IMG/VR virus record: IMGVR_UViG_2648501165_000012
DNA: 3,534 nucleotides
Reading direction: 5' to 3' (one strand)
Source: a virus
Taxonomy: Duplodnaviria > Heunggongvirae > Uroviricota > Caudoviricetes
Part shown: positions 2,216 through 3,226 of the stretch, piece after piece
Layout of the letters: each line of letters starts with the position of its first letter
How positions within the stretch are numbered: position 1 is the stretch's first letter
The notes under the pieces: generated by a model
Databases searched by the model: none
The model's input: the letters and a program-made list of their open reading frames with translations, nothing else
Told to the model about the DNA's origin: nothing
Made by a program: the position numbers and the translations under genes

Positions 2216-2326
2216 CCCCGAGAGCATTTTTTCGCATTCCGATTTGGTTAACTTTGTTTTTGAGTACCTTGTCCAGTTAGTAGGAGTGCCACCTTCCTTT
2301 TCAATAGTGGCGGTAATTTTATACAT
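2216..2326 (-). CDS. Small hypothetical phage protein, 3'-truncated by the assembly gap (37 codons visible: [37 protein letters not shown]...); occupies the position of lambda orf63
   Basis: ATG at 2326-2324 is preceded by GGAGGT with a 4-nt spacer and overlaps the Lar stop (cATGtaTAA). The 77-aa ORF in the track starts further upstream inside lar and runs through the N-gap, so only this part is supportable. Confidence 0.45.
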
Positions 2327-2549
2327 GAACACCTCCATTATTATTTCCAGTGGTTCGTTTATTCCATCGTTCGAGTGCTTCTTTTTCACTTCCACCATAG
2401 CCGGTTCGGGATTCGCATCCGTTACACTTCGCGCGGTAATATCCTGAAATGGCTTTCACCGTTACTGATGGACAACCACAAAAAGGGCATGGTTTGACTT
2501 TTGTGTATCGCACTGGTTTTTCTCCTGTGAGCTTTGTGGCTGCGCTCAT
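2319..2549 (-). CDS. Lar-family restriction alleviation protein (Zn-ribbon-like CPFCGC...CNGC), 76 aa; positional equivalent of lambda orf60a
   Basis: Cys cluster [31 protein letters not shown] is the signature of the Lar family (Rac RalR / lambda orf60a-type). Start placed at the ATG at 2549, which forms an ATGA overlap with the exo stop and has GGGGAG 8 nt upstream. The ORF-track start at 2555 has too short a spacer. Confidence 0.8.
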
Positions 2550-3226
2550 TTCCATTGCTCCCCAAATACAAAACCAATTTCAGCCAGTGCCTCGTCCATT
2601 TTTTCGATGAACTCCGGCACCATCTCGTCAAAACTCGCCATGTACTTTTCATCCCGCTCAACCACGACATAATGCAGGCCTTCACGCTTCATACGCGGGT
2701 CATAGTTGGCAAAGTACCAGGCATCTTTTCGCGTCACCCACATGTTGTACTGCACCTGGGCCATGTAAGCCGACTTTATGGCCTCGAAACCACCGAGCCG
2801 GAACTTCATGAAATCCCGGGAGGTAAACGGGCATTTCAGCTCAAGGCCATTGCCGTCACTGCATAAACCATCGGGAGAGCAGGCGGTGCGCATACTTTCG
2901 TCGCGATAGATGATCGGGGATTCAGTAACATCCACGCCGGAAGTAAACTCAAACAGGGCTCTGGCGTCGTTCTCGTACTGTTTTCCCCAGGCCAGCGCCT
3001 TAGCGTTAACTTCAGGAGCCACACCGGTGCAAACCTCGGCAAGCAAGGTGTGGAAGTAGGACATTTTCATGTCTGGCCACTTTTTTCCTGAGCGGGGTTT
3101 TGCTATCACGTTGTGAACGTCTGAAGCTGTGATGACACCTAGCCGTAATTTGTGCCACGCATCATCTCCCTGTTCGACAGTTATCACGTCGATCCCGGTA
3201 CGCTGCAGGATAATGTCTGGTGTCAT
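2546..3226 (-). CDS. exo: Lambda exonuclease (Red-alpha, 5'-3' dsDNA exonuclease), 226 aa
   Basis: The 226-aa translation ([14 protein letters not shown]...[11 protein letters not shown]) matches lambda Exo as I recall it, with only a few substitutions. Its start ATG overlaps the bet stop as ATGA (3223-3226), as in lambda. Confidence 0.97.

Follow-up and report, generated by a model that had tools for sequence, protein, structure and literature searches.

What does the small gene directly behind the exonuclease gene of this prophage encode, at which codon does its translation begin, and how does it serve the phage? The stretch analyzed here (hereafter, the window) comprises the 3,534 nucleotides (nt) taken from IMG/VR record IMGVR_UViG_2648501165_000012 (Caudoviricetes), and its phage genes lie on the minus strand. 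A preliminary description of the window had proposed a 76-amino-acid (aa) Lar-family anti-restriction protein, translationally coupled to exo and delivered from the promoter pL. Our analysis identifies the gene as ralR of the Rac cassette (ralR, the RalA small RNA (sRNA) and rcbA/DUF1187), which in a rare lineage abuts the 3′ end of a lambda-type Red exo. The gene likely encodes an early-operon protein that modulates type IA restriction, is toxic in excess and is damped by RalA. While ralR itself is already known, the exo-ralR junction and its dual start codons are a minor variant. The preliminary description had recognized a known gene correctly but interpreted it incompletely.

The product is a RalR protein

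Judged by its sequence, the product belongs to the Lar family and, more precisely, is RalR. The profile hidden Markov model search that the preliminary description had called for gave matches to all three family models: Pfam PF14354 (Lar_restr_allev; 52.6 bits against a cut-off of 28.6, E = 5.4e-14), TIGR03655 (anti_R_Lar; 54.7 bits, cut-off 39.6) and PHROG 599 ('Lar-like restriction alleviation protein'; E = 3.9e-17). The NCBIfam equivalog for RalR, NF007260, was matched over its entire length (157.6 bits, cut-off 113; E = 9.2e-47), with profile positions 1-64 of 64 falling on residues 13-76 of the 76-aa frame. This 64-aa core is identical to Lar/RalR of the Escherichia coli K-12 Rac prophage (b1348) at 62 of 64 positions, the differences being D4T and N5K, besides a GTG that replaces the ATG start. 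Behavior like that of characterized Lar proteins had been called untested, which is wrong, as the K-12 protein is the one that carries both the anti-restriction and the toxin claim. Both protein forms are already present at NCBI under the name RalR, the exact 76-aa sequence in 300 contigs and the exact 64-aa sequence in 997.

The Cys cluster and C-terminal end that had been described are borne out, on the minus strand. A four-Cys zinc-ribbon core is predicted at 2415-2489 (minus), with CPFC at 2489-2478 (CPFCGC at 2489-2472) and CNGC at 2426-2415. An alignment of 66 family sequences yielded the signature KPCPFCG...C..C...WN.R, present in full in the window protein; invariant positions were C21, P22, F23, C24, G25, C42, C45, W62 and R65, and nearly invariant ones K19, P20 and N63. 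All sites at which mutations abolish toxicity of the K-12 protein (positions 14, 37, 39, 49, 51 and 52 of the 64-aa form, taken from PMC4041452) are conserved. The AlphaFold2 (AF2) model of the 76-aa protein shows a beta-hairpin followed by a helix, with a mean predicted local distance difference test (pLDDT) score of 69 and about 80 in the core, and predicts residues 1-12 and 69-76 to be disordered. No homolog aligned to residues 1-12 among 1.84 billion representatives.

A single-protein homolog search reached close relatives only (20 hits), and a profile search was used for the wider family. Many of the distant Lar-family proteins string two to six Lar domains in tandem along a single chain that can reach about 430 aa, whereas the enterobacterial RalR has just one domain. 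The only match in a search of PDB sequences, the chitin-binding protein CbpD (E = 7e-5), was discarded as spurious since its Cys ligands were left unaligned.

A lambda-type exo end joined to a Rac-type gene

Upstream of ralR lies a lambda-type exonuclease gene (Red exo; 2546-3226, minus) encoding 226 aa, which matches Pfam YqaJ (E = 5.5e-31) and has about 95% nucleotide identity to lambda exo. The long ralR/lar open reading frame (ORF; 2319-2549, minus) runs from ATG 2549-2547 to TAA 2321-2319 over 76 codons, and its ATG overlaps the exo stop (TGA 2548-2546) as ATGA (2546-2549, minus), exactly as had been described. In lambda-type phages the same ATGA position serves DUF1317 (orf60a in lambda), and the likeness to lambda extends through the last exo codons and for 11 nt beyond the exo stop, to position 2535. 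After these roughly 11 nt the sequence is unrelated: where lambda has DUF1317 the window has ralR, and similarity to Rac sets in at 2524. Between the two lies a linker of about 10 nt that is unique to the junction (2525-2534, minus).

In K-12 Rac the upstream neighbor of ralR is recT, separated from it by a 56-nt spacer with a hairpin; here the neighbor is exo, and both the spacer and the hairpin are gone. Because they are missing, there is no space for a promoter of ralR's own outside exo. A consensus promoter and terminator scan gave nothing useful around the junction.

The junction is rare, although the gene is common. Of 5,426 complete E. coli genomes, 1,905 (about 35%) carry ralR, normally after recT, and only 16 carry the exo-ralR junction. 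By pattern scan, the junction turned up in 13 viral and three metagenome contigs and in none of the contigs of one-genome-per-species representatives. With the E. coli loci added, the junction set comprised 22 loci and 15 distinct alleles, and the long ORF was intact at 21 of the 22 loci. One of these loci, in E. coli R1 (L001; hereafter, the twin), is 99.7% identical to the window.

The identical junction was found with two integrase/excisionase modules: the Rac intR/xisR module (L008 and L010) and, in the window, the twin, L007 and L009, an integrase specific to the yebY/ryeA-ryeB site with an Exc-type excisionase. The junction therefore either predates the exchange of integration modules or has moved across it. 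K-12 Rac itself uses the ttcA site.

RalA and DUF1187 complete the cassette

The description of an anti-restriction gene held for Lar identity and overlooked both the toxin name of the protein and a second element, the RalA antitoxin sRNA gene, which lies downstream on the opposite strand (2169-2320, plus; Rfam RF02694, 'RalR antitoxin'). RalA is fully antisense to the next ORF downstream of ralR and is broken in the window by a run of N. Its score of 111 bits falls short of the gathering score (170) because ten N (2206-2215) replace what comparison with the twin shows to be 37 nt, shortening the window by 27 nt and masking exactly the segment with which RalA pairs, as well as part of DUF1187. 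The 37 nt read AAAAAAGAAGCAGGCGTTTCCAGAGAGCAGAAAGTAA on the minus strand of the twin, where RalA is full-length (179 nt; 216.7 bits); at nine further junction loci it scored 206-224 bits. A candidate −10 box, read from the sequence, is the hexamer TATAAT (2154-2159, plus), which precedes the 5′ end of RalA by 10 nt; the consensus scan missed it because no good −35 element is present.

In K-12, RalA together with Hfq blocks RalR synthesis by pairing with a 16-nt site in the coding region, 11 nt of which pair perfectly, and compensatory mutations in this site restore control (Guo et al. 2014, PMC4041452). The corresponding site in the window (2376-2391, minus; AAGUGAAAAAGAAGCA) is identical to the K-12 site defined by that mutagenesis. 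The pairing segment of RalA, read from the twin, retains the 11-nt core and one G.U pair, and the 16-nt interaction comprises 12 Watson-Crick pairs plus one G.U compared with 14 plus one in K-12, such that the flanks pair more weakly. Across alleles, the core changes on the messenger RNA (mRNA) side only from A to G, preserving pairing as G.U. These pairings were read directly from the sequences, as folding the full-length RalA with the ralR mRNA produced a meaningless pseudo-duplex of 170 nt.

The third member, the DUF1187/ydaC/rcbA ORF (2165-2325, minus; L001 6066-6254 in the twin; PF06688, 80.6 bits; NF007283), has an ATG that overlaps the ralR stop, as in K-12, and a strong GGAGGUG Shine-Dalgarno (SD) sequence. 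Its ratio of non-synonymous to synonymous polymorphism (pN/pS; about 0.03-0.06) indicates strong purifying selection at the protein level, with ten synonymous differences and one non-synonymous difference between the twin and L009. Several of the synonymous changes disrupt pairs in the Rfam RalA stem (model positions 89-123).

A probable early operon under a Rac-type repressor

The prophage of the twin is of Rac type, with racR, kilR, ydaE and a recE remnant, and carries lambda gam-bet-exo. Its annotation and papers on the K-12 Rac operon support the proposal that ralR is co-oriented with the recombination genes in the early-left operon of a prophage: in K-12 the gene is given as part of a recET-lar-ydaCQ operon (PMC3141248), and silencing of racR derepresses it along with recET, xis and int (bioRxiv 10.64898/2026.09.06.749655). 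As in K-12 Rac, ralR follows the recombination genes and precedes xis-int. Delivery from pL was not supported, as the controlling repressor in the twin is RacR rather than the lambda CI/pL system. We infer that ralR would be transcribed with gam-bet-exo and xis-int from a RacR-repressed early-left operon.

Upstream of gam-bet-exo, the twin also carries a 665-aa 'RecE family' gene (L001 8216-10213) whose end overlaps gam. The twin prophage thus holds remnants of both recombination systems and resembles a natural mirror image of lambda reverse.

Two start codons are probably used

Three in-frame start codons would give ralR products of different length: ATG 2555 (78 aa), ATG 2549 (76 aa) and GTG 2513 (64 aa). 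The 76-aa ORF proposed in the preliminary description exists, but its length is one of these three and the assumed start codon was the weak point, as RefSeq starts at GTG 2513. The canonical 64-aa coding sequence (2319-2513, minus; start codon 2513-2511) is the RefSeq/PGAP annotation in the twin. The 78-aa ORF, a mechanical call, was set aside: the SD pairing of ATG 2555 is strong (−7.7 kcal/mol) but only 1 nt away from the codon, and the exact sequence is absent from a collection of 15 billion proteins.

The two remaining starts are about equally well equipped. ATG 2549 is preceded, inside the 3′ end of exo, by GGGGAG (2558-2563, minus; −7.7 kcal/mol, 7-nt gap), identical to the site of the DUF1317 start in SE15, and GTG 2513 by AGGAGA (2521-2526, minus; −7.4 kcal/mol, 7-nt gap). 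Both are much stronger than the site of the K-12 ATG, which begins the 64-aa form there (−2.7 kcal/mol, 6-nt gap). Because DUF1317 starts at the same ATGA behind the same GGGGAG in lambda-type prophages, ATG 2549 appears to be an inherited coupling site and not a chance occurrence. The ATGA overlap and the suitably spaced SD sequence thus make use of a start coupled to exo plausible; they make it only plausible, because the SD sequence and GTG at 2513 are equally good and match the canonical start.

Natural variation bears on both starts. The 76-aa frame is intact in 14 of 15 alleles, the exception being strain 13E0780, in which a deletion at 2517-2521 (five A to four A; possibly a homopolymer sequencing error) leaves only the 64-aa ORF. 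Conversely, GTG is lost in two alleles, to GAG (L011 and L015, two independent genomes) and to GTT (L020, synonymous in the long frame); in both the gene is intact, and the only in-frame starts before the zinc ribbon are the upstream ATGs. With the long frame broken in one allele and the GTG missing from two, both starts look usable, and ATG 2549 and GTG 2513 are probably both used. Production of the coupled 76-aa protein, which has 12 residues more than the K-12 form, seems fairly likely. A 16-residue N-terminal tag leaves K-12 RalR toxic (PMC4041452). The 36-nt extension varies by one non-synonymous change and one indel across the alleles, too little for a test of coding selection.

The best-surviving alternative is that only the 64-aa protein is made, from GTG 2513, and that the ATGA and the open upstream frame are by-products of recombination between exo and ralR modules. 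The GTG lies exactly at the position of the K-12 ATG, all family models begin there, its AGGAG sequence is strong, and the frameshift allele of 13E0780 has this form only. Moreover, an open frame of 12 codons would arise by accident about one time in five (one-third for the frame multiplied by about 0.56 for the lack of a stop, by our own estimate). Against it, ribosomes should initiate at ATG 2549, which has the SD sequence and ATGA that serve DUF1317 in lambda-type phages, and would then read into the Lar domain, and the gene stays intact in the alleles whose codon 13 is GAG or GTT, where only the upstream ATGs could serve as in-frame starts ahead of the zinc ribbon. We consider exclusive use of the GTG possible but doubtful.

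Restriction alleviation, toxicity or both

The two activities attributed to the K-12 protein come from different studies. Lar was reported to alleviate restriction by EcoKI and to enhance modification (King & Murray 1995, as cited in PMC4041452). In 2014 RalR was re-described as a DNase that forms the toxin half of a type I toxin-antitoxin pair: the K-12 protein is reported to be toxic and to cleave DNA in vitro, and the K52Q mutant to be inactive (Guo et al. 2014, PMC4041452). The host in that study, BW25113, is hsdR514, and EcoKI and efficiency of plating are absent from its main text; the anti-restriction claim was therefore not directly re-tested. The current RefSeq/NCBIfam name is type I toxin-antitoxin endodeoxyribonuclease toxin.

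In the reading that we favor, switching on the operon would allow translation of ralR from ATG 2549, where ribosomes terminating on exo would re-initiate (76 aa), or from GTG 2513 (64 aa), most likely from both. RalR may then act on the type IA restriction-modification system of the host, alleviating restriction and enhancing modification, an effect that would protect unmodified phage or recombinant DNA. In excess the protein would be toxic, reportedly as an Mg/Ca-dependent DNase, and in the lysogen it would be held down by RalA, which may damp RalR output through the 11-12-nt core within 2376-2391 while also being antisense to the rcbA part of the same mRNA.

An alternative holds that RalR is purely a type I toxin, a non-specific DNase checked by RalA that serves prophage stability or stress survival, and that anti-restriction is not its function. 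The toxicity, DNA cleavage, K52Q mutant, RalA/Hfq dependence and compensatory mutations of Guo et al. (2014; PMC4041452) all speak for it, as do the current names and the conserved linkage of ralR and RalA. However, the restriction-alleviation phenotype was never re-tested, given the hsdR514 host, and a 64-aa zinc ribbon has no recognizable nuclease fold. The family is also widespread in phages beside early or recombination genes, often in tandem copies, which fits host takeover better than addiction, and in this lineage ralR belongs to a phage early operon instead of having its own promoter region. On balance, a function as toxin alone appears unlikely.

Less probable still is a stand-alone 76-aa anti-restriction protein made only via exo coupling with no toxin-antitoxin aspect, which would account for the ATGA overlap with its good SD sequence, the long frame in 14 of 15 alleles, the two GTG losses and the Lar-family matches, but which faces a full RalA gene with conserved pairing core beside ralR at every junction locus tested, the GTG start of RefSeq, an allele (13E0780) that retains only the short form, and a stretch of residues 1-12 that lacks homologs and is predicted to be disordered.

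A more speculative scheme, which we regard as a long shot, would unite both activities in a three-part module. A DNA-damaging zinc-ribbon RalR would be braked by RalA RNA and by translated RcbA/DUF1187, which is reported to lower double-strand breaks; limited RalR damage would trigger ClpXP-dependent restriction alleviation by the host, and the chimeric ATGA would tie RalR stoichiometrically to the Red exonuclease. If true, restriction would be relaxed exactly when recombination makes unmodified DNA.

Comparison with known systems

The closest counterpart is K-12 Rac, with which the window shares the near-identical core, all mutationally defined residues, RalA with its 11-nt pairing core, and the overlapping DUF1187/rcbA ORF. 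Lambda Ral offers a functional parallel as a small protein of the early leftward operon that is reported to alleviate type IA restriction and enhance modification (PMC3874165, PMC12707154). However, it has no sequence relationship to Lar (24% identity is quoted in PMC4041452), lacks the CxxC...CxxC zinc ribbon and has no known associated antisense sRNA, and its mechanism, in which it acts on HsdM to permit de novo methylation, is attributed to Ral only.

Lambda reverse is likewise a lambda/Rac recombinant in the region of the recombination genes, in which Lar travels with the exchanged segment (Toothman 1981, as cited in PMC4041452). While it places Rac recE-recT-lar in a lambda backbone, the present arrangement is the mirror case, a Rac-type backbone with lambda gam-bet-exo joined to ralR.

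The unconventional type I toxin-antitoxin pairs TisB/IstR-1, ZorO/OrzO and ShoB/OhsC, whose short pairing is of the trans type, resemble RalR/RalA in having a neighboring sRNA antitoxin with limited pairing (about 16-21 nt), with Hfq involvement reported for RalA. Toxins of the TisB/ZorO/ShoB type are small membrane peptides, whereas RalR is predicted to be a soluble zinc-ribbon protein. In contrast to IstR-1, OrzO and OhsC, RalA pairs inside the coding region and is also fully cis-antisense to the next ORF on the same mRNA.

Flanking features

On the integration side of the window, the excisionase ORF (1777-2064, minus) overlaps the start of the integrase (735-1811, minus) by 35 nt, an overlap that PGAP also calls in the twin. 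Between yebY (1-342) and the integrase lies a host sRNA pair identified with Rfam, SraC/RyeA (463-607, minus; 178.9 bits) and SdsR/RyeB (504-603, plus; 116.4 bits). From the position of this pair, the prophage appears to be inserted right beside the sRNA locus, with the attachment site expected roughly at 607-735. Just after yebY, a hairpin followed by a T run (368-412, plus; AAAAAACCGCC...GGGCGGTTTTT), recognized by eye, is a candidate intrinsic terminator of that gene. Elsewhere in a junction-bearing contig (L019 7355-7406) there is a match to the DicF sRNA (60.9 bits, gathering score 48).

Implications

As annotation, the result is routine, since the gene, its sRNA partner and both protein forms are already public as RalR. 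It does imply that calling such a gene 'Lar anti-restriction' tells only part of the story unless RalA and the toxin literature are taken into account. The role of the protein, which is very common in E. coli prophages, is disputed, and the 2014 study used an hsdR-deficient host. The rare exo-ralR junction offers natural alleles that have only one of the two start codons, and with them material on the importance of coupling to exo.
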